Shown here one piece after another: positions 3,351 through 63,563 of a DNA stretch of 64,000 nt. The translations under genes and the position numbers were made by a program. A model generated the notes under the pieces. That model was not told the DNA's origin and ran no database searches. It saw only the letters and a list, made by a program, of their open reading frames with translations. Where the stretch lies: positions 11,667-75,666 of the forward strand of contig JAGWGA010000001.1 in the NCBI GenBank assembly GCA_028867675.1. The letters run 5' to 3'. This stretch comes from Nitrososphaerota archaeon (lineage in GTDB: Archaea > Thermoproteota > Nitrososphaeria > Nitrososphaerales > Nitrosopumilaceae). Each line of letters begins with the position of its first letter. Position 1 is the first letter of the stretch.

Positions 3351-5198
3351 ATGAAATTCTATTACCTTTTTGGATTAATTGCAATATTATCAAGTACATT
3401 TTTTCTGACAGCTCCAGCTTTTGCAGAAACCACAGGTTCTATCGCAGTCACTTTGACATATACAAATGGTGATACTGCAGACTATTGGCCGGTATCGCTA
3501 AAAATTTATCAAGATTTTGACAAGACACCTTACAAAGAAATTGTATCACTATCTGCAAATCCATTCAATATCGTATCTTTACCAATAGGCCATCAGTACA
3601 AAATAGAAGCATATGCAAACAGCATGTACTCTAGTGTAGTTTATGTCGACTTGCAACAACCGCACCAAGATGTTAATGTAATACTTCCACTTCCAGGAGG
3701 AATGCGTGTTGATGCATTCTACAATGACGGCCTGACACCAATCTCAAACGCTACAGTCTATGTAAGAGCTCAAGACAACAAGACATGGGCCCATGGCCCA
3801 GTAGACACCAGTGGAAAGACAATGCGTTTTTGGATAGAGTCAACCACTTTGGATACTGATCATTATACCATCGACGTAAAAATTGGAGACAATCTAACAT
3901 ATACACAGTCGCCGATATTTCTCAGACCAGGAACATCCCAGGAAATAAAAATTGTAACAGGCTGGCCTCCCATAGTAAACACGCTTGTTACAGTAAATGT
4001 GCTAGATCTTCAATCACACCATGTATCTTCTTCAGATGGAAAATTCGTCGTAGATCTTTATGATAGCAGTGGAAACAAGATAGCACAGTACCCAGTGACA
4101 ATACGAGGCCAAGCATATTTTTCCAACTTGAAAGTGGGTGACTATACCTTCAAGGTCATACAAGTAAATAACAATACAGACTGGGCAACCTCAAAGATAA
4201 CACTAGACGGAACAAAGCTATTTTTTGACGTATCAGAGAGCCAAAAAACACCAGTCATCCCTGTGCCTACTCCAGTCACTCCTACTCCAGTCACTCCTAC
4301 TCCAGTCACTCCTACTCCAGTCACTCCCACTCCAGTAACACCCGAGCATACACCAATTACCCAACCTCCACCTACAATTACAAACTGTAACTGTGTGGCA
4401 TTCAGATTAGACAACGTTCAAGATTATTGGTTAGACAATGTACAAACCAAAGTCATGGACACATTTGATGAAAAAAATGCAAACTTGACTGTTGGAATAA
4501 TTGGTAAGGCATTTGGAAATGATTCCAAATTAACAGATGACATAAAATCAAAGATGCAGACTGGAAAAATTGACATTGCAATTAACGGATGGAGTTTTGA
4601 GGATTTCACAACAGATACAAAATCCCAACAAGTGCAATTGCTAGAATTATCAAAAGATAAAATATCTACAATGTTTGGTGTTGTGCCATCAATCTTTGTG
4701 CCACCATATGGAAAAGCAAACAATGACACATTTTACGCCATGATGGACAATGACATTTATTTCATCAGTGGAAATTCGGATTTTCATATTCCATCAGAAC
4801 TGGCAGGACGGATTCATTCTTATCCTCCAACAGTATTTACTGATACTGTGCAGTATCAAGATACTAATCAAAGTATTACAAACGATAAAATCATATCAGA
4901 CATACGCAATAGCATCAAATCTAATGGATATGCCATAGTTACAATCAACTTTCAAGATTATGCACAAAACAACGACACCACAAAATTAAACATGCCAGAC
5001 AATGACAAGATTCAGAACTTGCAGTCTTTGATTGACAGTGTAAAAAGTAACGGTTACCAGATAGTAACTATAAAATCAATATCAAATACTTCAGCAGTTC
5101 CAGAGTTTGGACCACTTGCCGCAATCACTCTAATTCTATCAATTACAGCTGTAATTATAACACGATTCAAAACAAATCGGATTACATCTAGATTCTAA
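3351..5198 (+). CDS. PEF-CTERM-anchored extracellular protein with polysaccharide-deacetylase-like (NodB/CE4-type) domain
   Basis: Start moved to ATG 3351 (MKFYYLFGLIAILSSTFFLTAPAFAE signal peptide), 3 nt after the GT2 stop. N-terminal beta-rich domain and a Pro/Thr linker. The C-terminal half begins VAFRLDNVQDYW ... INGWSFEDF ... VPPYGKAN, which resembles the deacetylase fold. Ends AVPEFGPLAAITLILSITAVIITRFK (PEF-CTERM). Confidence 0.65.
   Translation: MKFYYLFGLIAILSSTFFLTAPAFAETTGSIAVTLTYTNGDTADYWPVSLKIYQDFDKTPYKEIVSLSANPFNIVSLPIGHQYKIEAYANSMYSSVVYVDLQQPHQDVNVILPLPGGMRVDAFYNDGLTPISNATVYVRAQDNKTWAHGPVDTSGKTMRFWIESTTLDTDHYTIDVKIGDNLTYTQSPIFLRPGTSQEIKIVTGWPPIVNTLVTVNVLDLQSHHVSSSDGKFVVDLYDSSGNKIAQYPVTIRGQAYFSNLKVGDYTFKVIQVNNNTDWATSKITLDGTKLFFDVSESQKTPVIPVPTPVTPTPVTPTPVTPTPVTPTPVTPEHTPITQPPPTITNCNCVAFRLDNVQDYWLDNVQTKVMDTFDEKNANLTVGIIGKAFGNDSKLTDDIKSKMQTGKIDIAINGWSFEDFTTDTKSQQVQLLELSKDKISTMFGVVPSIFVPPYGKANNDTFYAMMDNDIYFISGNSDFHIPSELAGRIHSYPPTVFTDTVQYQDTNQSITNDKIISDIRNSIKSNGYAIVTINFQDYAQNNDTTKLNMPDNDKIQNLQSLIDSVKSNGYQIVTIKSISNTSAVPEFGPLAAITLILSITAVIITRFKTNRITSRF
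4266..4340 (+). repeat. 15-bp tandem repeat CCTACTCCAGTCACT (4 perfect copies plus 1 degenerate), encoding the (PTPVT)n linker
   Basis: Read directly: perfect units at 4266-4280, 4281-4295, 4296-4310 and 4311-4325. Unit 4326-4340 is diverged (CCCACTCCAGTAACA). Confidence 0.95.
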
Positions 5199-8013: not shown

Positions 8014-9358
8014 GATTTACTATAATATCCATTGCCTGACCTATAAACACAAATGCAAGACCTGTAATTGCAATCATAATTCCGGGTGGCAGTATCCACC
8101 ACCACATACCACGAGCCGCTGCACTGTAGGAGCTTGCATCATGTAAAATTTGTCCCCATGTTGGAAATGTGGGATCACCCAGCCCTAGAAAACTAAGACC
8201 TGCTTCGGTAGTAATTGCAGCTGGAACTGATATTGCAATACTTGCAAATGCATACGGAAGGAGTTGTGGCAGAATATGCTTGAAAATTATTTTGTAGTCT
8301 TTTTGTCCCATCAGTTTTGATGCTTCTACATATTGTAGTGTCTTAATCTGTAATGCCATGCTTCGTGAAACTTTGGCAATTCCCACCCAACCAAATATTA
8401 CTAGAAATCCAACCATCAAAAATATGCTATTACCTATAGTTACAGCTAGAATAATCAACAGAGGCAAAGCAGGCATTGCGTATATGATATCATTAAACCG
8501 CATAAGCACCTCATCAGTGGCTTTTCCCTTGTATCCTGCAAATACACCATAAAGTAGACCAAGTATTACAGATCCAATTGATACTGTAATACCTATGAAA
8601 AGTGCGAGAGGCGTACCCCATAGCAATCCAACAGACAAATCACGCCTGAGTTCATCAGTGCCCATCATTCCATAGACTTTACCTCCAAGAATTAGATGTG
8701 ATTTTGACAAAACTGGCTTGCCTGATACATCATATACGTGGACTCTAAAAACATAACTTCCTTTTAGAATTTTATTTTCATCAAGTTTTGAAAATACGAT
8801 TTTTTCAGAAGTTAAATCATCAAATGAAAAAGAGTATTTACTTTTAACATTTGCAATATTTTTTGAAATTACATTTTGAGTTGAAAATATCATACTAGAA
8901 TATGTTGCAGTATCATTGGCATAAGGCAAAGAGGTAGACAATAACGATAATTCAATTCCATCAGGTCTTGTTACAGACAACTGTAACAATGGAGAGCCAC
9001 TGTACTTTATATCATATTGATAGATAAAATCACTTGGAAATCCATCATATTGATAATTTACCACGAATGAATCAGTCATGACATATACAGAGCCTAACTG
9101 TTGGGACATGCTTTGTGGAGATAGAATCAAATGTTCCGGAATTTTTTCAGATTGGAAATAATTCACCCATGCAGGTTGTGCAGATTTTGGATATAATAGC
9201 CAGCTTGCAGGGTCATTCCATGTCTTGAAATTATCAACCGGAATAGTTACAAATGCAATAACAGACATGGAAAAAAGTACAACTAGAATTACAATTCCGG
9301 TCATCCCAATTTTATTGTGGGAAAATTCACGCCATATCCCCTTGGCTGAAAAACTCAT
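7997..9358 (-). CDS. ABC transporter permease (DppC/OppC-like) with large extracytoplasmic insert
   Basis: 453 aa. The C-terminal part has the BPD-type permease core (EASKLMGQKDYKIIFKHILPQLLP, an EAA-loop-like segment). Third gene of the SBP-permease-permease operon. Confidence 0.8.
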   Translation of the reverse strand: MSFSAKGIWREFSHNKIGMTGIVILVVLFSMSVIAFVTIPVDNFKTWNDPASWLLYPKSAQPAWVNYFQSEKIPEHLILSPQSMSQQLGSVYVMTDSFVVNYQYDGFPSDFIYQYDIKYSGSPLLQLSVTRPDGIELSLLSTSLPYANDTATYSSMIFSTQNVISKNIANVKSKYSFSFDDLTSEKIVFSKLDENKILKGSYVFRVHVYDVSGKPVLSKSHLILGGKVYGMMGTDELRRDLSVGLLWGTPLALFIGITVSIGSVILGLLYGVFAGYKGKATDEVLMRFNDIIYAMPALPLLIILAVTIGNSIFLMVGFLVIFGWVGIAKVSRSMALQIKTLQYVEASKLMGQKDYKIIFKHILPQLLPYAFASIAISVPAAITTEAGLSFLGLGDPTFPTWGQILHDASSYSAAARGMWWWILPPGIMIAITGLAFVFIGQAMDIIVNPRLRR

Positions 9359-10407
9359 TCTCTTCTCACCCTCGGATCAAAATATCCATACAAGACATCT
9401 GCAACAAAGACACTTGCAAGGAAAAATGCCGTTAGAACATATGTTGCTCCAATTATAACAGGCAAATCCAAAACACTGATCGCTTCATAATATAGCCTGC
9501 CCATACCAGGCCAATCAAATACTGCTTCAGTAATAATTGCTCCACCAAGAGAGCCAGACAAGCTTAATGCAAGAACTGTAACTATAGGAGGTGCAGCATT
9601 TTTCAAGGCATGAGAGTATAAAATTCGCTTTTCATCTATTCCTGCAGCCCTTTTTGCCATGATAAAGTCCTCTTGTAAAACACCCACTAGGAAATTTCTT
9701 ACCAAGTATGCCCACGAACCAAATCCAATTAGAACTAGAGTAATCAGTGGGAGTGCCATGTGATACAATAATGAACCCAAATACCCAGGGTCACTTGCAG
9801 GAACTTCTGGGGTTGCCCTTGCAGGAAATATTGGATAAAGGAATGCAAAGACAAAGATCATAAGAACTCCTATCCACCAAACCGGAAAGCTGCTGGATAC
9901 AATAGCAAATCCAGATGTTATCTTGTCAATTTTAGAATTGATTTTGCTTGCTGCAATTGCTCCAAGAAATATTCCAAGTACCGAAACTATAGCAGTAGCT
10001 GTTGTAAAAAGAAGAATTGTCTTGGGCAATTTTTCAAGTATGATATCTTTAACATCAGATGAACCACTATCACTTGTTAGATACTTTGCATGACCAAAGT
10101 CAAGTGTTAAAATTTTATACATTGAAAGCCCAATTCGTTGTGGAGAATACCAAGGTCGGTCCAACCCAAGAGATGTAATTTTTTGTTTAATTTGATTATC
10201 AATGTATGAGTTTAACTGATCAGTTGTCTTGAAACTTGCAAGAAGACTCTTGTTATTTGTAACTTGTTGCCTTACCTCAAGTGATACACTTTGTTTTGAT
10301 ATAGAGTCCATGTTGGCACCCACAAGAGCTATTGTAACAAGAAGTGTTGCCATCAATACCCCAAACATTGTAATGGCCCGTTTTGCAAGGAATTTTTTAA
10401 ATCCCAC
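9355..10407 (-). CDS. ABC transporter permease (DppB/OppB-like)
   Basis: 350 aa, 6 TM helices. MAKRAAGIDEKRILYSHALKNAAPPIVT is an EAA-loop-like segment. 4-nt overlap with the downstream permease. Confidence 0.8.
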   Translation of the reverse strand: MGFKKFLAKRAITMFGVLMATLLVTIALVGANMDSISKQSVSLEVRQQVTNNKSLLASFKTTDQLNSYIDNQIKQKITSLGLDRPWYSPQRIGLSMYKILTLDFGHAKYLTSDSGSSDVKDIILEKLPKTILLFTTATAIVSVLGIFLGAIAASKINSKIDKITSGFAIVSSSFPVWWIGVLMIFVFAFLYPIFPARATPEVPASDPGYLGSLLYHMALPLITLVLIGFGSWAYLVRNFLVGVLQEDFIMAKRAAGIDEKRILYSHALKNAAPPIVTVLALSLSGSLGGAIITEAVFDWPGMGRLYYEAISVLDLPVIIGATYVLTAFFLASVFVADVLYGYFDPRVRRE

Positions 10408-12864
10408 CTATTTCATTCCCCTTTTTCTAATTAAAAGAAACACAAAAACTGATACTATAACTGCTAAAATTAGAATACTTGTAAGATATACATAATTTTC
10501 AGTCAAAGATACTGGACTCGTTACAAGACTTTCTGGAGACAGAGTATTTTCTCCGAGGGTTACAAGAAAACTACTATGATACATGTCTGGTTTATACGCC
10601 ATATCAGATACTACAAATATTTGAAAATCATTAGAGCCAAGATCAAGATTTGCAGTCTTGTCAGGCCCAAGCGTTACAGCCATTGAACCATTAACAGATG
10701 CTTGTTTTCCACTGTCAACTATCTTTCCTTGTGAGTTTGTAAAATAATAGTAGACAGTAGCGTTAGGCGTTACTACAATCGGAATATTCAGTGTACTACC
10801 AAGCGTTACACTAGTTGGAACAATTACATTTTCAATTTTAGGGATGCTTATCTCTTCGAATTTTTTCCAGTAACCTGCTGGGAATGGATATGTAGGATCG
10901 GAAAATGAATCAATTGTGATTGTTCTTGCCTCGGGAGAATAATTATCTAGATAGTATGGACCATTACTTATTACTGCGTGATTATGTTGTGCAATCCATG
11001 ATGCCGATGCATTATATCTTGAATCAAAATAGTTTGAATCGTTGACAAATGCAAGTGCTGGAGGAATCGATTTTTCCTTTGCAAAGTCTTCAAGATTGGT
11101 CTTAATGATATTTGCATCATCAGGTATGATTAGTGACATCCAGTCAACATTTTTGCTTACTGCATCTGACTTTGAAAATGCAAGTTTTCCGTCAGTTACT
11201 GCTTTTTCCATCGAATAGACAACCTCCCATGGCATTGCAGGCCATACCTGAGCCGAATCTGCAACCTCACCAGAGTCAAAATGCCAGAAATTTTGATAAA
11301 CTTCTATGGTAGCATCATCAATAACTCTAATTCCTATGAGAGTTTTTGCTGCCTGATTTGCTTTTGGAGAATATTCTGAATCAAATGTTGTGGTATCGTT
11401 TGTTTGGTCAGCCCCCCACTGGTACAAAAAGTATATTCCATAAAGAACATCGTTCATGTCCATTGGCATTTTGTTATGCCAATTTCCAAATTTCAAGTGA
11501 AATGTCACTTTGCTTGTTGCATAAATTCCAGGTCCGACATGAATCCACTTTTGTTTTACAGCATCCCATTTTATTGCATCAGACGGTACATCGAGTTTAT
11601 TCAATGGTCCCGCTGTTTGAACTTGCCAATCAGATCTTACAGGTATTGTATATCCGGTGTAAGGATTTTTGAAGCTTCCAGGATCATTTACTATACCCCA
11701 TATCTGTTGACTGTACGAATCTGGAAATCCCGCAATGGGATTCCATGCACCCTGATAGATCTTCTTTACACCTATTGTCAGAGTATCAGAATCCGATCTT
11801 GCATTAATTGGCGTAAACCTACTTGCAATACCTGCACCAAAATCATTGATTGTACCATTCACTTTTTTATTTGTGATGAATTGATCTGTTTTTGATGCAA
11901 GAAAAACTCTAACGGAATCATGGATTCCTCGGTCAACAGCCTGTGATATAAGAAAGGAGCGTTGCTCTGAAGATGTGAAATTTCCAAAAAATATTGCTTT
12001 TGATAATGAATCAATTTGAGGCTCTTGGAAATTCCAGTATGACGGATTGTTAAATCCAGGCATGTTCGAAAACCAAGGAGAGTACATTTGTGCAGTCATT
12101 ACAGAATCATATCGTACAAAACCGCTCATAGACCAGGCTTCTGTGTAAATACTCCATTTCATATCAGACGGATTAGAACCATATACAATTGAGAACGCCT
12201 TTGTCAAGTCACCGTAGTCTTTTTTCACAGTAAACCCCATTGTTTGTAATTGTGAGGCAAGAATCTCACCAATGGATTTTCGTATAGGGTCATCATTTCT
12301 TATAAAAATTGTAATTTGAACAGGTTTTGACTGGTACTGCCACACTCCTCCAATTTTTTGTGCACCTGCCTTTTCTAATGCACTAGAGATCATTTGATTT
12401 GCAAGAGTCGGATTGTGTCTGAAATTAAATGACTGGAGTTCTTGAAGTATCAAAAGATAATCAGGATCATATGGCTTGTATGCAGATATCATTGGAGTTC
12501 CATATCCATTTAGGACCTCATCTACAATCAGATCTCTATCTATTAGGTAATTTAGTGCAAATCGTACTTGTTGAATTGAAAAAGGATTGAATTGTTCCGA
12601 TACTGCAGGGTTTATCAAAAGACTATAGCTTGTCCCAGCAGATTGAAACACTTTCAAATTTTGCCTAGACTGATCATCAAGCCGATCTAACGGTATAGCA
12701 GAATAGTAAATATCTAGATGTCCATTTTTTACTTCTTCAACTGCCGTATTTTCATCAGAGTATTGAATAAATTCCACTTTGTTAAAATTTGTACCTTTTT
12801 CGCTAAATGCAATCTCTGGACCTAAAATAAAAAGTGCTAGTATGAAGACTAGCAAAAGTTTCAT
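10408..12864 (-). CDS. ABC substrate-binding protein, family 5 (peptide/nickel type), with C-terminal extension and TM anchor
   Basis: 818 aa. Signal peptide MKLLLVFILALFILGPEIAFS. The size and position ahead of Dpp/Opp-type permeases fit a family-5 binding protein. C-terminal beta-rich extension and anchor LTSILILAVIVSVFVFLLIRKR. Confidence 0.7.
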   Translation of the reverse strand: MKLLLVFILALFILGPEIAFSEKGTNFNKVEFIQYSDENTAVEEVKNGHLDIYYSAIPLDRLDDQSRQNLKVFQSAGTSYSLLINPAVSEQFNPFSIQQVRFALNYLIDRDLIVDEVLNGYGTPMISAYKPYDPDYLLILQELQSFNFRHNPTLANQMISSALEKAGAQKIGGVWQYQSKPVQITIFIRNDDPIRKSIGEILASQLQTMGFTVKKDYGDLTKAFSIVYGSNPSDMKWSIYTEAWSMSGFVRYDSVMTAQMYSPWFSNMPGFNNPSYWNFQEPQIDSLSKAIFFGNFTSSEQRSFLISQAVDRGIHDSVRVFLASKTDQFITNKKVNGTINDFGAGIASRFTPINARSDSDTLTIGVKKIYQGAWNPIAGFPDSYSQQIWGIVNDPGSFKNPYTGYTIPVRSDWQVQTAGPLNKLDVPSDAIKWDAVKQKWIHVGPGIYATSKVTFHLKFGNWHNKMPMDMNDVLYGIYFLYQWGADQTNDTTTFDSEYSPKANQAAKTLIGIRVIDDATIEVYQNFWHFDSGEVADSAQVWPAMPWEVVYSMEKAVTDGKLAFSKSDAVSKNVDWMSLIIPDDANIIKTNLEDFAKEKSIPPALAFVNDSNYFDSRYNASASWIAQHNHAVISNGPYYLDNYSPEARTITIDSFSDPTYPFPAGYWKKFEEISIPKIENVIVPTSVTLGSTLNIPIVVTPNATVYYYFTNSQGKIVDSGKQASVNGSMAVTLGPDKTANLDLGSNDFQIFVVSDMAYKPDMYHSSFLVTLGENTLSPESLVTSPVSLTENYVYLTSILILAVIVSVFVFLLIRKRGMK

Positions 12865-20179: not shown

Positions 20180-20460
20180 GTGCGCGCCAGCCGTAACCCT
20201 CCTTCTGTTTTTACGATATTACGCTATGCGGCCTACCTAAACAAAGTGCAGCGCTTATTGTTTGATTTGGCCTTTCTCCGCGCGGGACAGATTTTTCATT
20301 CCTTGCTGGAAACCTCAGGCATTACCATCATAGTACGCCAGGTCGGATTTTTTTCTGTGCTGTTGCCAATCATCTCTGATTATCCGTCTCCGGATCGCAC
20401 TTGCTGCATGGAGGGAGGAGTTTCCTCTGCCGTGGCAGTAATCGTTCACCGGCTCGCACC
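20180..20460 (-). ncRNA. rnpB: RNase P RNA (archaeal type)
   Basis: GC-rich island in AT-rich DNA. The minus strand reads 5'-GGUGCGAGCCGG..CUGCCACGGCAGAGGAAACUCCUCC (CR-I-like, consensus GAGGAAAGUCC) ... ACAGAAGGAGGGUUACGGCUGGCGCGCAC-3' (CR-V-like ACAGAA..GGCUUA). The ends pair as P1. TATA-like TAAAATAG is centred about 26 nt upstream of 20460. End coordinates are approximate (about 10 nt). Confidence 0.8.
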
Positions 20461-55734: not shown

Positions 55735-55772
55735 AATCTCAAATCACATTTTTGAGTAAAGTAATGATTATA

Positions 55773-55792
55773 ATTCTCCATATATGGAGAAT
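55773..55792. promoter_or_regulatory. perfect 20-bp palindrome ATTCTCCATATATGGAGAAT upstream of the UbiA gene (candidate operator)
   Basis: Read directly. Arms ATTCTCCATA / TATGGAGAAT. Lies 38 nt upstream of ATG 55734, inside a 270-bp very AT-rich spacer. Confidence 0.5.
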
Positions 55793-56008
55793 CATACTAG
55801 TATATTATAACTTTTTAGATAATACAGGGTAAAAATTGAAAATTATATATCATTATATACATTTTTTATGAAAATTTGTAATATTTTAAAAATTAGATTA
55901 TTACGAGTGAAAACAAGTAAAAACAGTCTCATCAAACTACAATAAAACAGAATTTATGGACACCAAGTCTAACAAAGATTAAAAGTCATCACATAATTTT
56001 TTCACATA

Positions 56009-56230
56009 TTGTATTCTAATTTTGTGACCAAATATTGTCAAAAGATAAACAAAGTATTACTTTTTACAATACTTGTAACAGGCAGCGTGATTTTTTCAAA
56101 TACCATTTCATCGGCAAATGCCATGACCCCACTTAATCCAAAAATTGAACCAGTAGAACATAGTTCATCCAATCCCAATCTGTATGTATCTGCAGAAAAT
56201 TCGTTTTATGTCAATACTTTTCAGCCCTAA
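56009..56230 (+). pseudogene. 5' fragment of a secreted-protein gene, terminated at the composition break
   Basis: 73 codons: signal peptide (VLLFTILVTGSVIFSNTISSANA), then about 35 residues of mature sequence (..NPNLYVSAENSFYVNTFQP), then a stop. G+C rises sharply within about 80 nt. No continuation is found on this strand. Confidence 0.4.
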
Positions 56231-56309
56231 AACACCCCTTCCACGATCTTAACTACTACCATTACGTCTACCTATGATTCCAACATGATATTAGACCAAA
56301 ATCCCTTTT

Positions 56310-56770
56310 TGCCTACTTTTGCTTTTTGCGAAAAGTAGGTCGCTGAAAGCGAAACCCCTGTCAAACGACTATCAACGAAGTTGAAGGAGTGCGGAGCGAA
56401 GCGGAGACCCTGCGAGTTGGCATAATCCGAGCGAAGCGAGGACGAGCAAGCCGAAGGCTTGCGAAGCCCGAGGGGTCTCAGAGACCCCGAGTGGTTATGG
56501 AGGGGAGGGGTCTCACGAGTTTTACGAAGGAAAACGGGGGTCTCATGTGAGACCCTGTGAGACCTAAAAACGCAGTTTTTAGCAAGACTTGGAGCAAAAG
56601 AGGGGGTCCCAAAGGGACGGGTGAATTTTGCGACAAGTCGAAGTCCTGCCCTCCATAATCGTAGCAATCACGGAGCGGAGCGAAGAATTGCGTAGGTTAT
56701 GCCGACGAGCCATTAGACAAACAGCGAAGTCTCAAAAGGGGAGGAGGAGCAAAGCGACGGAGGGGTGAAT
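56310..56770 (+). ncRNA. GC-rich hairpin-dense non-coding element: candidate large structured RNA (alternative: iteron/hairpin replication or partition site)
   Basis: 62% and 65% G+C in 56401-56460 and 56461-56520 (hand count). Nested long-range complementarity (56354-62/56756-66, 56416-28/56695-706 with G-U pairs valid only on the plus strand, 56495-504/56649-58). At least 6 perfect local stem-loops. No credible ORF. Matches no RNA family that I recognise. Confidence 0.4.
56472..56545 (+). repeat. three direct copies of GGGGTCTCA (iteron-like), with complementary GAGACC(C) copies nearby
   Basis: Copies at 56472-80, 56507-15 and 56537-45 (spacing 35 and 30 bp). GAGACCC is found at 56404-10, 56481-87 and 56549-55, and GAGACC at 56559-64. 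Confidence 0.85.
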
Positions 56771-56797
56771 TGAGATGGAGTGAAAACAAACTCATCT

Positions 56798-56814
56798 TTG
56801 TATTAAAAATACAA
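56798..56814 (+). promoter_or_regulatory. inverted repeat TTGTATT-AAA-AATACAA overlapping a TATA-like box, upstream of the toxin-antitoxin-like pair
   Basis: Read directly. 7-bp arms with a 3-nt spacer. The TTAAAAATA core is centred about 33 nt before ATG 56839 and 12 nt before ATG 56818. Confidence 0.45.
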
Positions 56815-56817
56815 AAC

Positions 56818-56970
56818 ATGAAATATCTGGAATGCTATATGGATAGCATGCAACGAGCAGTAAAGAAGGACGAGGTTTCATTAGGATTGCCAGAAAACGA
56901 GCCTATTGAACACGCAGAAAAGGACATGGATGCGCTAACGAAAAAGATTATGAAAGACCATTGGGATTAG
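56818..56970 (+). CDS. small acidic protein upstream of the MazF-like gene (putative antitoxin)
   Basis: 50 aa from ATG 56818 (MKYLECYMDSMQRAVKKDEVSLGLPENEPIEHAEKDMDALTKKIMKDHWD). The track TTG 56770 lies inside the GC-rich element. ATG 56839 is also possible. Position and size fit an antitoxin, but no known antitoxin fold is recognised. Confidence 0.4.
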   Translation: MKYLECYMDSMQRAVKKDEVSLGLPENEPIEHAEKDMDALTKKIMKDHWD

Positions 56971-56977
56971 CCCATTA

Positions 56978-57331
56978 TTGACTTTTCGATTTAATATCAA
57001 GGCAGGGGACGTTATTCTTGCAAAACCCAATTACCAAGATCAGGTAGATAATTATGTTAGACCAGTTTTAGTTATTTCAAAGTCAAACTTCCATCAAGAT
57101 AGTGGATTCTTTGTTTGTGCAGGCATTACAACAAATCAGACCTCAGACAAATATTTGATTCCAATTACTTCGCAAGACACAAGTCCAAGACTTAAAGAAC
57201 AATCCCAAGTAATGTGCAAAAGAATAGTGACAATAAGAGAAGATGCAATAATCAAAAAGGTGTGTAGTGTGACCCCTGATTTTTACAATAGAGTGAAAGC
57301 CATAATATTGACAGATGTTTTGGACTTTTAG
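56978..57331 (+). CDS. MazF/PemK-family endoribonuclease toxin-like protein
   Basis: 117 aa. Aligns by eye with E. coli MazF: GDVILAKP / GDLIWVDF, RPVLVIS / RPAVVLS, VCAGITTN / LCVPCTTQ, SQVMCKRIVTIRE / ADQVKSIAWRAR. TTG start 8 nt after the upstream stop. Confidence 0.65.
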   Translation: MTFRFNIKAGDVILAKPNYQDQVDNYVRPVLVISKSNFHQDSGFFVCAGITTNQTSDKYLIPITSQDTSPRLKEQSQVMCKRIVTIREDAIIKKVCSVTPDFYNRVKAIILTDVLDF

Positions 57332-59539: not shown

Positions 59540-59830
59540 TCACGTTAGTATGTCATCGGCAAAAAAGCCGATGAGGGAATACCAAAATGGGAGACATGAA
59601 CAGGTTGGCTCGGCAAATCGTCCGCCGTGACCCACTGACAAGAAATCTGAGAGGACGACTGTGGTACACCGCAGTAAAAGTAACGGAAAAAGAGATATGG
59701 CGAAACATATACCGCCTATATCCTGTCTTGCGAAGAGACAGACGGCAAGACCGACTTTTTCCGCCAAAACGGAATTAAGCCCAAAAGTAGTTACTCTCTC
59801 AGTGTGTGCCCAAATTTAGTAAGCCACACT
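59540..59830. other. second GC-enriched hairpin-rich non-coding spacer
   Basis: Stem-loops read directly: 59554-73 CATCGGC-A6-GCCGATG; 59618-23/59653-58 TCGTCC/GGACGA; 59694-702/59713-22 GATATGGCG/CGCC(T)ATATC; 59723-41 CTGTCT-TGCGAAG-AGACAG. Only Arg-rich, low-complexity ORFs on both strands. Confidence 0.3.
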
Positions 59831-59959
59831 ACCACTCTTACATCTCAATATTGGAAATGTGTTTTCTTACGATCCTGCCACAATCAAGGCAAGCCCAATT
59901 CTCGTATAGAATATTGTTTTTACGCTTGATGTAAAAAATCACTCTCTTATGTTTGCAGT

Positions 59960-60091
59960 TTATCTGCGTCTCAACTTTTTCAATTCTATTTTCGTGCGTT
60001 CAATCACCTTCAATTTTCCAGCATCATCTTTGTCATTATCATAAGTGCCATCAACCAAGCCAAGCAAGAAATTCAATATTTCATCAATCAT
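59960..60091 (-). CDS. small protein (43 aa), last gene of the element operon
   Basis: Not in the ORF track. Reads MIDEILNFLLGLVDGTYDNDKDDAGKLKVIERTKIELKKLRRR. ATGA overlap with the upstream stop and a GAGGAGGT Shine-Dalgarno-like box 5 nt upstream. Confidence 0.4.
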   Translation of the reverse strand: MIDEILNFLLGLVDGTYDNDKDDAGKLKVIERTKIELKKLRRR

Positions 60092-60324
60092 TTCAACCTC
60101 CTCTTAAAAAACGTCCACGCCAGACCTTGAAGAAACGTGATAATGCTGATACTCTCCCAACTTGATGCCACGATTAAATATTCAGCAAGTTCTATAAACG
60201 AAATTTCATTTATGAAAAACAAAAACAAACCGATAATTCCAGTAAAAAGAAAAAAAGCACTTGCAATTGTTAATACTTCAATTATTACAAGTGCATACCT
60301 AATACGCCTGCGTATGTGTCGCAT
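60088..60324 (-). CDS. small two-TM membrane protein (element-borne)
   Basis: 78 aa. Arg-rich N-terminus and two hydrophobic helices. Starts 2 nt after the upstream stop. Confidence 0.5.
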   Translation of the reverse strand: MRHIRRRIRYALVIIEVLTIASAFFLFTGIIGLFLFFINEISFIELAEYLIVASSWESISIITFLQGLAWTFFKRRLK

Positions 60325-60325
60325 C

Positions 60326-60748
60326 TCATAGGGACTTTTGCTTCTTCTTCATCTGCATCATGGCAAAGTCTACAATCTTTTCTGATACCTTTGCAACAGA
60401 AATGGTGCGGTTGTAGATGTGCAGTGCATTATCGTATATCTCACTCATGAAGAGAGTACCAATATCGTAATCCACATTTGCTACAAACTGCCTCTCATAT
60501 TTTTTCAGAGCATCACCAACAAAGCCAGTCCACACCTCTAGGGTTACATTGTTTTTCTCTTCCCTAAGAAATGCGGATATTGTCTTTTCCTCGCCTTCGG
60601 CGATTTTCTCACTGATGATGGAAGATACCGTGGTCTTCTCCCTATCCTGCCTTACAAACAAGTCCCAAGACTTTTTGCCGTCTTCTTCCGTGTATGTCCT
60701 GTAAATTCTCCTATACCTTGTCTCAATCTGTGGCGTTTCATTTTCCAT
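60326..60748 (-). CDS. hypothetical soluble protein (element-borne)
   Basis: 140-aa ORF with normal composition. No motif recognised. Confidence 0.5.
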   Translation of the reverse strand: MENETPQIETRYRRIYRTYTEEDGKKSWDLFVRQDREKTTVSSIISEKIAEGEEKTISAFLREEKNNVTLEVWTGFVGDALKKYERQFVANVDYDIGTLFMSEIYDNALHIYNRTISVAKVSEKIVDFAMMQMKKKQKSL

Positions 60749-60819
60749 TTCATCACAATTAGATTAGAAAGTAAAGGTCTAAGAACCCGTAACATGTTTT
60801 TTGTTTATTTTGATAAATG

Positions 60820-61773
60820 CTAATCCCAATGCTTACTTTCCCATTCCCTTTTAGCATCGTATCTTCTTTCCTGTGCAAAATCCCTCCAATCACTTTCTTT
60901 TAGTGGACTTGGAGCTCTAAACCCCCATCCTTTTCCACTGCCACCGCCAAAAGTTATTTTCACTTTCCACAAACTCTTCTTTCCAACTTTTGCACCGTAT
61001 TTCTTTTTCAGGTCTTTTTGTATTTTTTCGTTATTACTCAGGTCTTTTTTATTTGCTGAACGCCAGATTACAACTCCTGTTACAAGTGATACCATCCCCA
61101 CAACTAAAATTATTGATTGCATTTCATTTAGCAAGAGTCTTCCGCCAATAGAAAAAAAGAAAAATCCAATTACAAATATTGCAACAACCGCCATATTCTT
61201 CAAAACAGATTTGTTTGCCTTACCATATTTTGCATCATAACTTGCCTTGAAAATAGCCATACTGTTTCTTTCCTGTGCCTCCGATCTAGGCTGTTCACAT
61301 CTTTTACGCTGAACTATAACAAACACATAAGCAAAGAACGAAATGGTTAGGATTCCTGGCACATTTGCCACCAAGCCCATTTCGTTAAAAGCAATACCCA
61401 AGCCCACAAAAATGCCAACAACACAAAGAACAGCAAGCCAATATTTTCTGCTAAAAACATCTACGATCTTGCGTGTTTGACTCTCTATGTTTTTTAATCC
61501 TTGTACCTGTTCCCATGTCCATCCCTTTGGTATCTCTCTGAAATACCTGAGCCTGAAAAACACTGGCAGACCGATAAACATAGCCAGTAGTACAAAAAAT
61601 AGCCAGCTATTGTCTATTGCATTTTGCCCCTTAATGCCTAAAAGTGTCATAACAGCAACCGCAAGGATAATCGAAATCGAGACCCAGAATCTACCCGAAG
61701 TAAAGTGAAACAAGTGTGAGAAGAAATTGTCCCTAGTCTTTCTCCAATTTCTTGGAACTTTTACTTTGTCCAA
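60820..61773 (-). CDS. polytopic membrane protein (element-borne; candidate channel/mating-pore component)
   Basis: 317 aa, about 7 TM helices, Gly-rich GGGSGKGWGF near the C-terminus. 13-nt overlap with the upstream ATPase gene. Confidence 0.55.
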   Translation of the reverse strand: MDKVKVPRNWRKTRDNFFSHLFHFTSGRFWVSISIILAVAVMTLLGIKGQNAIDNSWLFFVLLAMFIGLPVFFRLRYFREIPKGWTWEQVQGLKNIESQTRKIVDVFSRKYWLAVLCVVGIFVGLGIAFNEMGLVANVPGILTISFFAYVFVIVQRKRCEQPRSEAQERNSMAIFKASYDAKYGKANKSVLKNMAVVAIFVIGFFFFSIGGRLLLNEMQSIILVVGMVSLVTGVVIWRSANKKDLSNNEKIQKDLKKKYGAKVGKKSLWKVKITFGGGSGKGWGFRAPSPLKESDWRDFAQERRYDAKREWESKHWD

Positions 61774-63563
61774 TCCTTCAAAACCTCTTCAAGTTCATTG
61801 AGACAGCAGACTCTAAACTTGCCCTCTATGCCATCAACGGCAGAAAACGCATTCTCATATCTCTTTTTGACCTTATAATTTGCACAGACAAAAATTACTT
61901 TCTGTGCAGATTTTTCCAAAAGTTTTCTAACATCATCTTTAACATCCTCCTGAAAACCTGTCTTTGCATCGATGCAAAAATCGGGGGCGTAAATATCCCA
62001 ACCTTGATTGACTTGGCTCTCAGTATATTTTATTTTTAATTTGTCTAAAACTTTTCCAGCATCTTCAATTATAGTTCGGTGTACTTGGCTCTCGCCATTT
62101 GGAATGGAATAATAATATTGTCTTGGCTTCTGCTCGGGTTTTAATGTGATGGTGATATAATCAATTTTTCTAATCTTGCCTTCCGCTTCCAAGTCTTTTA
62201 ATGTCCTTGATATGATATTGCCCCTTTTCGGATGATTTTTGCCATAACCTAAGGAAAGTGCTATCCCGTGAGCCGTCATACAAAACTCATTCTTTTCTAA
62301 ATTCTTGATTATAGTTTTATCATCATCATTTACCGCCTGCACCTGCACGGTCTGCGTGGTCGTTCCTACCTGCTGTTCTCCTGTAAAATATTCCGATATT
62401 GCAAGATCTGAATTTAGTCTAGCCTCCTCCTTTACCTCTAACTTCAAAGTCTGCAATCTTTCATAATTTAGTTTGAAAACGGCTATTACGTCCTCATCAT
62501 GCTCATATTTTATGTCAATAAACTCATAGTCTCTTAATCTAATCACGCCGTCCCTGACAAACGCCCCGTAACCCTTCTCAATTGCCTGCATATCTTTGTC
62601 ATTTGTATTCCTAAAACAAAAAATCGTTCCAAAATGGCTACGATAATCTTCATCCAAGTGCGTATAATTTTGAGTGATACACAAAAAGCGTAGGTAGTAT
62701 GCACCTTCCAATAAAATAGTTCCAACTATGGAACTTTGCTGTTTGTATCTTAGCAAATGCCAAGCCTCATCTATTACGACACGGATTCTTTCCTCTCGCT
62801 GTTCTTTCTGTTCGATCCTGTTAATCTGCCTCAGATAATATTCTGCAAGAAAGGTCTTACTTTCCGTGTCTGGCACATTACCCAAATCTAGAATAATATT
62901 TCCTTTACTGAAATCGATATTGCCCTGCCTTGCACCTGTAGTGGCTCTTTGTAAAAGTTGAACCTTTGATTTTATGATTGACTTTATGTTTTCTTCCCAC
63001 TGCCCGCCATGTTGGCTGTCGAGTATTTTAAAAAATTCCTCAAAGTTTTTTGGATGTTGGAACATCACATATGCAACCCTGTCCAGTATTACGTCAATCA
63101 TTAGACCTTTCATGGAAAGGTCAGCAAAGAAGGCAGTTCTAAAAGCCTCTATGAAACTCTCCCAATCCGAAAACAAATTTGGCAAGTGCTGGGTTACATC
63201 AATCCAGTGATAACCAATTTCAAAATCTCTTTTTGTCAGTAGAAATTTTTTGAAACTAATTATGATTTTCCTCTCAGGTAATTTTAAACAAAGATATTCT
63301 CCAAGGGTTGTCTTTCCGCTTCTCGCTCCACCAATAATAAAAATATTCTCGTTAACTTTCTTTCTAACATATTCAATAAGGTCAAAGCCTTTCCTGCCAA
63401 CAGGCTCGTTTCTAATTTGTAAAAATCCGTCCAAATCCTCATTTTTTATTCTGCGAATGACTGAAACAAGAAACACGTCATAATCTTTTTTATATCTTAG
63501 AAAATCAAACAATCCCATACATACCCCCACAACCAACGCAACAATCCAATAGTGAAATAGCAA
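61761..63563 (-). CDS. membrane-anchored VirB4/HerA-FtsK-superfamily P-loop ATPase fused to wHTH-like and PD-(D/E)xK-like C-terminal segments
   Basis: 600 aa. N-terminal TM helix WIVALVVGVCMGLF, Walker A IIGGARSGKTTLGEY, Walker B RVVIDEAWHLL (DEAW as in the VirB4/TrbE and DUF87/HerA clades). Then ALSLGYGKNHPKRGNIISRTLKDLEAEGKIRKI (wHTH-like) and IIEDAG...WDIYAPDFCIDAK (E...D...DxK). Confidence 0.65.
   Translation of the reverse strand: MLFHYWIVALVVGVCMGLFDFLRYKKDYDVFLVSVIRRIKNEDLDGFLQIRNEPVGRKGFDLIEYVRKKVNENIFIIGGARSGKTTLGEYLCLKLPERKIIISFKKFLLTKRDFEIGYHWIDVTQHLPNLFSDWESFIEAFRTAFFADLSMKGLMIDVILDRVAYVMFQHPKNFEEFFKILDSQHGGQWEENIKSIIKSKVQLLQRATTGARQGNIDFSKGNIILDLGNVPDTESKTFLAEYYLRQINRIEQKEQREERIRVVIDEAWHLLRYKQQSSIVGTILLEGAYYLRFLCITQNYTHLDEDYRSHFGTIFCFRNTNDKDMQAIEKGYGAFVRDGVIRLRDYEFIDIKYEHDEDVIAVFKLNYERLQTLKLEVKEEARLNSDLAISEYFTGEQQVGTTTQTVQVQAVNDDDKTIIKNLEKNEFCMTAHGIALSLGYGKNHPKRGNIISRTLKDLEAEGKIRKIDYITITLKPEQKPRQYYYSIPNGESQVHRTIIEDAGKVLDKLKIKYTESQVNQGWDIYAPDFCIDAKTGFQEDVKDDVRKLLEKSAQKVIFVCANYKVKKRYENAFSAVDGIEGKFRVCCLNELEEVLKDWTK

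Follow-up and report, generated by a model that had tools for sequence, protein, structure and literature searches.

A previously undescribed family of large structured non-coding elements, most likely RNAs, in integrative elements of ammonia-oxidising archaea

A G+C-rich non-coding island and its homologues

The window analysed here is a stretch of 64,000 nucleotides (nt) of contig JAGWGA010000001.1 (assembly GCA_028867675.1, positions 11,667-75,666) from a Nitrososphaerota archaeon of the Nitrosopumilaceae. It contains, directly upstream of two genes resembling a MazEF toxin-antitoxin module, a hairpin-dense, G+C-rich island. In our view it is rather probable that this island encodes a large structured non-coding RNA (ncRNA) of a new family and that it constitutes a fixed, single-copy core part of rare integrative elements of about 10 kb found in ammonia-oxidising archaea (Nitrososphaerota). 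Retrieved loci and contigs are designated below by L-numbers (L007, L011 etc.), and the four sequence groups of the island by the letters A-D.

The island is the largest G+C excursion of the window. The G+C content, which is 0.359 for the whole window, rises from 0.15 at 55801-55860 to 0.617 at 56401-56460 and 0.65 at 56461-56520. An earlier reading of the DNA letters (hereafter the original prediction) had described this jump together with three nested long-range pairings, a set of local stem-loops and several short motifs, and on recomputation all of its coordinates and strings proved exact. The six local stem-loops were all found, the heptamer GCGAAGC occurs at 56396, 56431 and 56461 and nowhere else in the 64 kb, and GGGGTCTCA and GAGACC are present in three (56472, 56507 and 56537) and four copies, respectively. 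The RNase P RNA near 20.2 kb, to which the G+C contrast of the island had been likened, is also real (20182-20457 in an Rfam scan of the window). The pentamer CGAAG is found nine times in the island versus 0.9 expected from its composition, and the complement CTTCG is absent from it. Both strands fold better than dinucleotide-shuffled controls, i.e. the plus strand with -184 kcal/mol (z = -6.1) and the minus strand with -162 kcal/mol (z = -6.4). No second copy of the island was detected anywhere in the window.

The island matches no recognised RNA family, as had been suspected. When the whole window was compared with Rfam 15 at the gathering threshold (including the models of GOLLD, ROOL, OLE, HEARO, RNase P, the signal recognition particle (SRP) and group I/II introns), just the RNase P RNA and two tRNAs were matched. 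A permissive search (E<=10) of region 56100-56950 gave a best E-value of 3, far under the gathering scores, and a scan of 11 homologous loci returned tRNAs only.

The island might also be thought to be a decayed or horizontally acquired fragment of a protein-coding gene from a G+C-rich donor, as its minus strand carries the open frame of 131 codons that the original prediction had reported in place of any protein-like open reading frame (ORF). The frame does exist. However, it has no Pfam match, and its translation, used as a query against 5.8 billion proteins, found a single relative, which is an equally spurious frame in the homologous island of L007. No reading frame remains open across the members of the family, the indels (whose lengths are not multiples of three) and hairpin swaps that distinguish them are incompatible with coding, and substitutions compensate in stems and not at third-codon positions. 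Profile and protein searches gave no real protein match for a decayed gene, and the probability that we give to a coding origin is practically negligible.

The protein query described above led to the first homologue, L007, a metagenome contig of 1.8 kb. Its junction sequences are identical to those of the window, whereas its hairpins are swapped for different yet complementary sequences, and this pair of loci alone provides 14 compensatory base pairs. A 20-mer taken from the longest identical block then retrieved L010, L011 and L013 from JGI metagenomes. Another route was offered by the hallmark protein of the element, a protein of 140 amino acids (aa; see below) with relatives in only 19 clusters of the protein collection. 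The contigs of these clusters yielded both close homologues (L014, L015, L017/L018 and L022) and divergent ones (L029/L030, L020, L023/L024, L026 and L027), and each contig that bears the hallmark gene and reaches far enough contains exactly one G+C-rich island of 480-600 bp. Altogether, nhmmer searches and retrieval gave 15 distinct metagenome homologues belonging to the four sequence groups; conservation of the island extends well outside this genome. Samples ERZ25039471, ERZ27256801 and JGI 3300031671 are among those in which the element occurs. The core is 340-480 nt long in the family and about 430 nt in the window.

No match to the island was found by BLAST in phage and plasmid collections, the ATPase of the element had none among phages, and the hallmark protein had none among viral contigs. 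Four conserved 19-20-mers were also compared with viral contigs; two of them gave no hit, and one hit solely L008 and L009, which are not homologues (the matched sites are bacterial phage promoters). A further hit of the metagenome scan, L012, was discarded as a chance match.

L008 and L009 are unrelated bacterial-phage contigs of IMG/VR. They have in common a 21-mer, TATAATCCGAGCGAAGCGAGG, straight after a TTGAC(A)-17-TATAAT promoter (L008 8659-8700, L009 ~1519-1560), and their 15-mer CCGAGCGAAGCGAGG is identical to window positions 56427-56441. In L008 an intrinsic terminator lies about 110 nt after the 21-mer, and the transcript may be a small RNA.

Even where the hallmark proteins of two elements share only 35-38% identity, their islands remain above 80% identity, which points to a very strong constraint on its sequence. 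The groups of the island are discordant with the tree of the hallmark protein: the window protein is 68% identical to that of L020, yet the L020 RNA belongs to group C.

Covariation and architecture of the folded strand

Covariation was assessed on nine group-A sequences, for which a curated structure of 96 pairs in 14 helices was drawn up; helices of the other groups were read from anchored positions, as wide-window duplex searches were too greedy. RNAalifold predicted 97 pairs for group A, 25 of them compensatory. In the curated structure 98.0% of cells are paired, versus 90.8% in shuffled alignments, and both sides have changed in 27 of the 96 pairs, versus a shuffled mean of 11.0 (none of 500 shuffles reached 27). 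When the partner strand was slid by 1-3 columns, pairing fell to about 40% and the compensatory pairs to nine at most.

Two of the three long-range helices of the original prediction have been proven by covariation. The pairing placed at 56416-28/56695-706 corresponds to helix HA (56416-27/56695-706), and that at 56495-504/56649-58 to helix HB (56493-504/56649-60). Inside group A, HA alternates between C-G, U-A and U-G pairs. At the same topological position, groups B-D have fully complementary helices of unrelated sequence, i.e. CAACGGC/GCCGUUG, GCGAAGUCC/GGACUUCGC, GCAAAUCC/GGAUUUGC and GCGACUCC/GGAGUCGC, and the same is true of HB, which is replaced in these groups by GAGCAAGAGGGAAGA/UCUUUCCUCUUGCUC, GAGGUAGAGCG/CGCUCUACCUC and GAGGUAGGGGA/UCCCCUACCUC. 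A further stem, closing the second of two G-tract modules (see below), is paired in 94.1% of cells across 15 sequences, versus 26-41% in slid controls, and reads GUGGCAA(A)/(U)UUGCCAC or GGGGUA/UACCCC elsewhere in the family.

The third long-range helix (56354-62/56756-66) stood in part. Its ACCCC/GGGGU portion is conserved, shows one compensatory change (C-G to A-U, in L022) and has tract lengths that vary together across groups, but it is otherwise close to invariant. We propose that this pairing of the 5' C-tract (C1) with a G-tract would make a pseudoknot with the closing stem of module 2.

As for the strand, G·U combinations occupy 63 cells (in 16 pairs) and A·C combinations five, so that the plus strand is the folded one, which bears out the plus-sense orientation proposed earlier.

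The nested order of structural parts is constant in all members of groups A-D. The 5' C-tract is followed by the 5' strand of HA, purine-rich junction strands of the GAGCGA(A)GCGAGG type with small hairpins, the 5' strand of HB and variable hairpins; then come module 1, the 3' strand of HB, a hairpin subdomain, the 3' strand of HA, module 2 and the CG(N)AG(C/U)G tail. Both modules consist of a stem around an internal loop, in which the G-tract (A)GAGGGG, a variable insert and the G-tract GGGGUGAA succeed one another. In the window, the parts are as follows:

56312-56339 and 56341-56353, plus strand: 5' hairpins P1 and P2, a lineage-specific extension outside the core
56352-56785, plus strand: conserved core, from the 5' C-tract to the CG(N)AG(C/U)G tail (15 homologues, covarying structure)
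56354-56358, plus strand: C1 tract ACCCC, proposed partner of the G-tract at 56762-56766 (helix 1, 95.6% of cells paired)
56416-56427 with 56695-56706, plus strand: long-range helix HA (12 of 12 positions paired, two of them G·U)
56446-56462, plus strand: hairpin GCAAGCC-GAA-GGCUUGC (helix 6, four of seven pairs compensatory)
56472-56488, plus strand: hairpin GGGGUCUC-A-GAGACCCC, with the first 'iteron' copy (helix 7, seven of eight pairs compensatory)
56493-56504 with 56649-56660, plus strand: long-range helix HB, closing the module-1 domain (helix 8, 100% paired, three compensatory pairs)
56507-56582, plus strand: variable multi-hairpin insert in the HB domain, with the other GGGGTCUCA/GAGACC copies and the hairpin CTAAAAAC-GCA-GTTTTTAG
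56594-56631, plus strand: module 1, stem GCAAAA/UUUUGC around GAGGGGG-hairpin-GGGUGAA (all 15 members)
56729-56776, plus strand: module 2, stem GUCUCAA/UUGAGAU around (A)AGGGG-insert-GGGGUGAA (all 15 members)

Hairpins P1 and P2 are present in the window, L007, L010, L011, L017 and L022, degenerate in L013 and absent from L014 and L015; groups C and D possess a different 5' hairpin with a CCCCC loop. The inner hairpin of module 1 varies in sequence and length. The insert at 56507-56582 has the same sequence in L014 and L017 only, and other lineages bear different hairpins there. An AGAC/GUCU hairpin that RNAalifold placed upstream of module 2 was discarded: it is disrupted in L022, where the competing module-2 stem is preserved.

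The GGGGTCTCA copies had been interpreted as iterons, and one of the two readings offered by the original prediction was that of a DNA-level iteron or hairpin origin, or a centromere, of a small integrated replicon. The island does lie in such a replicon (see below), whereas the iterons are not conserved. GGGGTCTCA and GAGACC are confined to the lineage of the window, L014 and L017, and other lineages substitute different, still complementary arms at the same positions (CGUUGC/GCAACG, UGUGUA/UACACA, GGUGUG/CACACC, GGUAGU/ACUACC and GUAGUG/CACUAC). To judge from these alignments, the copies are lineage-specific hairpin arms and not conserved repeats.

Taken literally, this reading would make the island a double-stranded DNA origin or centromere, whose GGGGTCTCA iterons are bound by a Rep or Par protein. 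Three direct and four inverted copies, the location in an integrated replicon, and a repeated stem sequence particular to every lineage, as might be expected of iterons that evolve together with their binding protein, are all in keeping with it. On the other hand, the repeats are always paired hairpin arms with compensating changes (as in helix 7), their number and spacing are not conserved, and they occupy the most variable stretch of the island; no Rep or Par gene was recognised in the elements with Pfam and PHROGs. What is more, binding sites on double-stranded DNA cannot explain long-range helices whose strands are 130-330 nt apart, and these helices, like the strand-asymmetric G·U pairs, need a single-stranded fold. 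We therefore regard a double-stranded iteron site as highly improbable.

The repeated stems show a further regularity. Lineage by lineage, the hairpin just 5' of HB shares its stem sequence with stems inside the HB domain (56472-56565 in the window; also in L007, L010, L022, L020 and L023), so that two or three hairpins of one molecule have identical stems, which change together between lineages. This suggests that alternative or intermolecular pairings may be selected and preserved.

The host element and its cargo slot

Beyond 59.5 kb, the window shares a gene block with L011 and L013. The same genes in the same order, accompanied by a tyrosine integrase gene and a tRNA gene, occur in L011, L013, L014, L015, L017, L022, L023, L026, L027 and L029, and complete elements are about 10 kb long. 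In the window the block consists of the following genes:

59587-63563, mostly minus strand: conserved core gene block of the mobile element, running off the window end
59587-59778, plus strand: 63-aa basic, arginine-rich protein
60088-60324, minus strand: 78-aa membrane protein
60326-60748, minus strand: 140-aa hallmark protein
60820-61773, minus strand: 317-aa multi-pass membrane protein, ending in ...ESKHWD in the family
61761-63563, minus strand: 600-aa P-loop ATPase with a weak AAA_10/AAA_22 match

The island is always near one end of the element, in single copy and with the core genes on the other strand. In L014, L017 and L019 the tyrosine integrase gene abuts tRNA-Ser(GCT), with the island at the opposite end. 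L026 represents the group-D arrangement and has a tRNA gene placed between the gene of a larger integrase (473 aa) and the 3' end of the island. Two AGGTAGTATAGTGTAA direct repeats (L026 1581-1666 and 1670-1820) are situated in between and may be integrase arm sites.

The host flanks differ from locus to locus: a UbiA gene in the window, genes of secreted proteins in L011, ribosomal-protein and TFB genes in L013, and a gene of the isocitrate/isopropylmalate dehydrogenase family (Pfam Iso_dh) in L014 and L017. This indicates that the island travels with the element and not with the host. No attachment (att) direct repeats or duplicated tRNA fragments of at least 11 nt were found at the far end of the element in the relevant regions, so that such repeats do not mark the exact element boundary in the window. 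No contig proved circular when this was checked, and no single-stranded DNA form of the element was seen, which is uninformative as to its form. Just before the island, a 73-codon ORF with a signal-peptide-like N-terminus (56009-56230, plus strand) comes to its stop; it follows a very A+T-rich stretch (13-20% G+C at 55750-55950) and is possibly a truncated host gene at the junction of element and host.

Searches of the element proteins against Pfam, PHROGs and PDB sequences identified only the integrase, the weak P-loop match of the ATPase and a DnaJ domain. No replication protein was recognisable with Pfam and PHROGs, with which most element proteins find no match. The confidently predicted structure of the hallmark protein (predicted local distance difference test score, pLDDT, 88) is a six-stranded antiparallel sheet followed by two helices, and it has no significant neighbour in PDB or BFVD (none better than E = 0.004). 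Its hit list included a faint, non-significant resemblance to nucleic-acid binders of the PUR/Whirly type.

A second G+C-rich island of the window (59540-59800) was considered as a second RNA and rejected, as it has no consensus secondary structure. It corresponds to the gene of a conserved arginine-rich protein of 60-63 aa, present in nine loci (e.g. window 59587-59778, plus strand; L017 10788-10970; L023 4970-5152).

Directly 3' of the island, five loci (L011, at 4215-4290, L014, L015, L029 and L030) carry four to five copies of GGGT(C/A)(T/A)A at 11-bp spacing, followed by AGGTAG repeats. By its sequence, this phased array could be an origin or a protein-binding array.

The genes that follow the island in the window are preceded by a palindrome:

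56797-56815, plus strand: palindrome TTTGTATTAAAAATACAAA, probable operator/promoter of the cargo operon
56770-56970, plus strand: small ORF, likely a MazE-like antitoxin gene by its position (no Pfam match), with a possible ATG at 56810
56978-57331, plus strand: PemK/MazF-family toxin gene, cargo (Pfam PF02452, E = 1.9e-13)

Pfam has thus confirmed that the gene described as MazF-like belongs to the PemK/MazF family. L011, L014 and L015 have a near-identical palindrome ahead of the first gene 3' of the island, and it is probably an operator or promoter shared by the cargo slot. The contents of the slot vary: in L007 it is occupied by a convergent PemK gene, whose product is 35% identical to the window toxin, in L017 by a ParE-like toxin gene preceded by a small gene analogous to the MazE-like one, in L022 by a methylase, EcoRII-C and Vsr set (8181-10740), and elsewhere by small unknown genes. 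Further defence-type genes at element ends or in the cargo slot encode a TPR protein with a CAP12-PCTIR TIR domain (L017 12759-14033) and an AbiEii-type ATPase (AAA_15/AAA_21; L013 5421-6491). The region around the island behaves as a hotspot of defence and addiction genes.

The other reading of the original prediction was that of an ornate, plus-sense, element-borne RNA of about 450 nt without a known family, which might act as a leader, a regulator or an RNA antitoxin of the MazF module. Its first half agrees with our results; its second half does not. A regulatory link to the MazEF-like genes is suggested by the island lying directly upstream of them on the same strand, and by the PemK gene that also adjoins the L007 homologue. 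However, when homologues were tabulated, 13 of 15 had no MazF gene alongside, and the L007 gene is convergent with the island and encodes merely a distant relative of the window toxin. Conversely, relatives of MazF are encoded in six further archaeal genomes, in one case with 82% identity, and in none of these does an island adjoin the gene. The MazE-like gene has, moreover, a probable palindromic operator of its own, and elsewhere ParE-like, restriction-modification or unknown genes fill the slot.

In type III toxin-antitoxin (TA) systems, the RNA antitoxin ToxI resembles the island of the window in its non-coding nature and in its place immediately ahead of a toxin gene. ToxI differs in consisting of tandem repeat units, of which the island has none, whereas the window toxin is a type II PemK/MazF protein with a small antitoxin ORF of its own, and the association of island and toxin is not conserved. 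The MazF relatives without an island, the islands mostly without MazF and the varied slot mark the link as a cargo effect: the neighbouring MazEF genes are exchangeable cargo, and a leader, regulator or antitoxin function of the island is hardly to be believed.

RNA or single-stranded DNA, and a possible role

The island is a conserved, strand-specific and intricately folded element, and an obligatory single-copy part of a family of integrative elements. We suggest that it most likely acts as RNA. The same plus strand might instead fold as single-stranded DNA (ssDNA), serving as a single-strand (lagging-strand) origin or as a folded substrate of recombination or transfer. This would require that the element passes through an ssDNA stage, i.e. 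rolling-circle replication, packaging of ssDNA or conjugative-type transfer.

Strand-specific compensatory structure suits ssDNA as well as RNA, and the loops of the island lend this alternative some weight. C(GAA)G triloops account for 35 of 160 predicted hairpin loops, as against four GNRA tetraloops, and with other GNA triloops they dominate, in line with the roughly ten-fold enrichment of CGAAG on one strand only. A GNA triloop with a closing C-G pair is typical of DNA mini-hairpins of very high stability, and no C(GAA)G or other GNA triloops of this kind occur in the RNase P RNA of the same window. The location near the att/integrase region, the phased repeats next to the island in five loci and the want of a clear terminator would fit as well. 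On the other hand, neither HUH/rolling-circle Rep, nor relaxase, nor any other ssDNA-stage protein was detected by Pfam or PHROGs, though most element proteins match nothing there. With 340-480 nt, at least 14 helices, a probable pseudoknot and long invariant unpaired strands, the island is far larger and more elaborate than the known single-strand origins and attC-type sites, and its G·U (G·T) pairs are frequent and stably kept (63 cells, 16 pairs), as is typical for RNA helices.

A comparison with single-strand origins, integron attC sites and the attP site of CTX phage leads to the same balance. They have in common with the island a strand-specific fold kept by compensatory change, a place beside a tyrosine-recombinase/att region and DNA-type GNA triloops. 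However, the island is several times larger and more complex and contains long invariant unpaired strands and abundant stable G·U(T) pairs, and no rolling-circle Rep was detected with it. Weinberg et al. (2017; PMC5737381) pointed out that RNA and ssDNA motifs are not reliably separable by bioinformatics, and reported, from the replication regions of plasmids, motifs 223-349 nt in length with a possible function as ssDNA. Owing to the predominance of C(GAA)G triloops, we treat a function as ssDNA as a live alternative, albeit an unlikely one.

Mobile elements may also carry structured ncRNA at one end as a guide or scaffold of their RNA-guided enzyme, e.g. the omega-RNA of IscB/TnpB and the bridge RNA of IS110, and an RNA of this kind would act on the junction or the empty site. 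The terminal position of the island, its large conserved scaffold with variable hairpins, its 5' end facing the element boundary in the commonest arrangement and the fact that most element proteins have no assigned function would allow for this. Yet no IscB, TnpB, Cas or IS110-type protein (neither RNA-guided nuclease nor DEDD recombinase) was detected by Pfam or PHROGs, and the integrase is an ordinary tyrosine recombinase. The adjoining genes vary, the orientation of the island to the element end is not constant (it is reversed relative to the tRNA/att site in L026 and L027), and in L017 and L014 the island shows no guide-like complementarity to the tRNA/att region. A guide RNA is, on this evidence, very unlikely.

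If the island is an RNA gene, as we favour, a promoter of its own at the element edge would drive its transcription. The 5' C-tract would then pair with the last G-tract to form a pseudoknot across module 2, which compacts the molecule, and the invariant junction strands, judging from their conservation, may bind a conserved partner. We do not think that the RNA regulates neighbouring genes. Its likeliest role would rather be in the replication or maintenance of the element itself, where it might serve as a scaffold or else be an RNA of the primer type or one associated with the origin. Such a role is favoured by the control-region position beside att and integrase, by elements having no recognisable replication protein, by the 11-bp-phased repeats 3' of the island in five loci and by the precedent of RNAs in plasmid replication regions (PMC5737381).

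Several observations weigh against this interpretation. Transcription is something that we infer: the A/T-rich, promoter-like boxes about 25-30 nt upstream of the 5' hairpins or of the core are weak, and no clear oligo-T terminator was found at the island. The scarcity of GNRA tetraloops and the wealth of C(GAA)G triloops have been discussed above. The C1/G-tract pairing is nearly invariant and thus barely tested, so that its support is weak, and the covariation statistics as a whole rest on few events, the number of independent lineages being only about four. Neither the window nor the majority of loci have the phased repeats. Finally, a role in replication or maintenance is weakly supported, being an analogy and not a result.

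Among known elements, the ColE1 RNA II primer is a structured element of a plasmid replication region. The ARRPOF, GEBRO and PAGEV motifs are further examples (PMC5737381). The island resembles all of these in being a long structured non-coding part of a small replicon, placed in a non-coding control region, with phased direct repeats adjacent at some loci and a conceivable role as RNA or ssDNA. It shows no homology to them, no Rep protein was recognised in the island elements, and the window lacks the phased repeats.

GOLLD, which is about 800 nt long, and ROOL offer another comparison. Both are large ornate prophage RNAs near tRNA genes whose function is unknown (PMC5737381); that they build RNA-only assemblies has recently been demonstrated (Kretsch et al. 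2024, doi 10.1101/2024.12.08.627333). Like them, the island has several hundred nt (more than about 400), many helices, multistem junctions and a probable pseudoknot, in a structure supported by covariation, of which the pseudoknot is the weakly tested part. It is likewise carried by integrated mobile or viral elements without an associated conserved protein gene: the island elements bear an integrase, and a tRNA gene is near the integrase (L014, L017 and L019) or the island (L026). The differences are that the island does not match the Rfam models of GOLLD and ROOL, that its host is archaeal, and that it is smaller, with a core of 340-480 nt versus 581 nt for ROOL (PMC5737381). It also has features of its own, i.e. 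two G-tract modules, C(GAA)G triloops and junction strands of the GAGCGAAGCGAGG type, and a far larger share of its nucleotides is invariant.

It is tempting to extend this comparison and to view the island as the first equivalent in archaea of the giant ornate RNAs known from mobile elements of bacteria, self-organising and possibly self-assembling or catalytic. In such an RNA, the four invariant G-tracts (two per module) and the C-tracts would form a pseudoknotted or G-quadruplex-like core, and the lineage-specific palindromic stems would mediate alternative or intermolecular pairing, as a conformational switch or in a homo-oligomer. Interaction with some essential machine of the host, exploited by the element, would account for the extreme conservation. 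Palindromic stems changing in concert are only suggestive of homo-oligomers, and we put this forward, with all its parts taken jointly, as a speculation that is doubtful.

To our knowledge, few structured RNAs are both large and highly conserved, and those known are nearly all ribozymes, ribonucleoprotein cores or, as recently recognised, RNA-only assemblies. We know of no comparable RNA from an archaeal mobile element, nor, for ammonia-oxidising archaea, of any description of a structured non-coding element in their mobile elements. In the text of a 2019 survey of thaumarchaeal integrated elements (PMC6563490), the terms 'non-coding', 'noncoding' and 'GC-rich' do not appear.

Based on our observations, we consider the island and its homologues a real and well-supported new family of large structured non-coding elements, most likely RNAs, that belongs to a mobile element of archaea; their expression we infer from sequence. 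The family is rare, and a covariance model of the island would be a ready marker for such elements in metagenomes. The attractive link to MazF toxin-antitoxin biology is hereby corrected. The island is the best-conserved part of an otherwise unannotatable family of elements, and it may therefore provide a handle on how these elements replicate or persist in their archaeal hosts and possibly on a new RNA fold, with its G-tract modules and C(GAA)G triloops.

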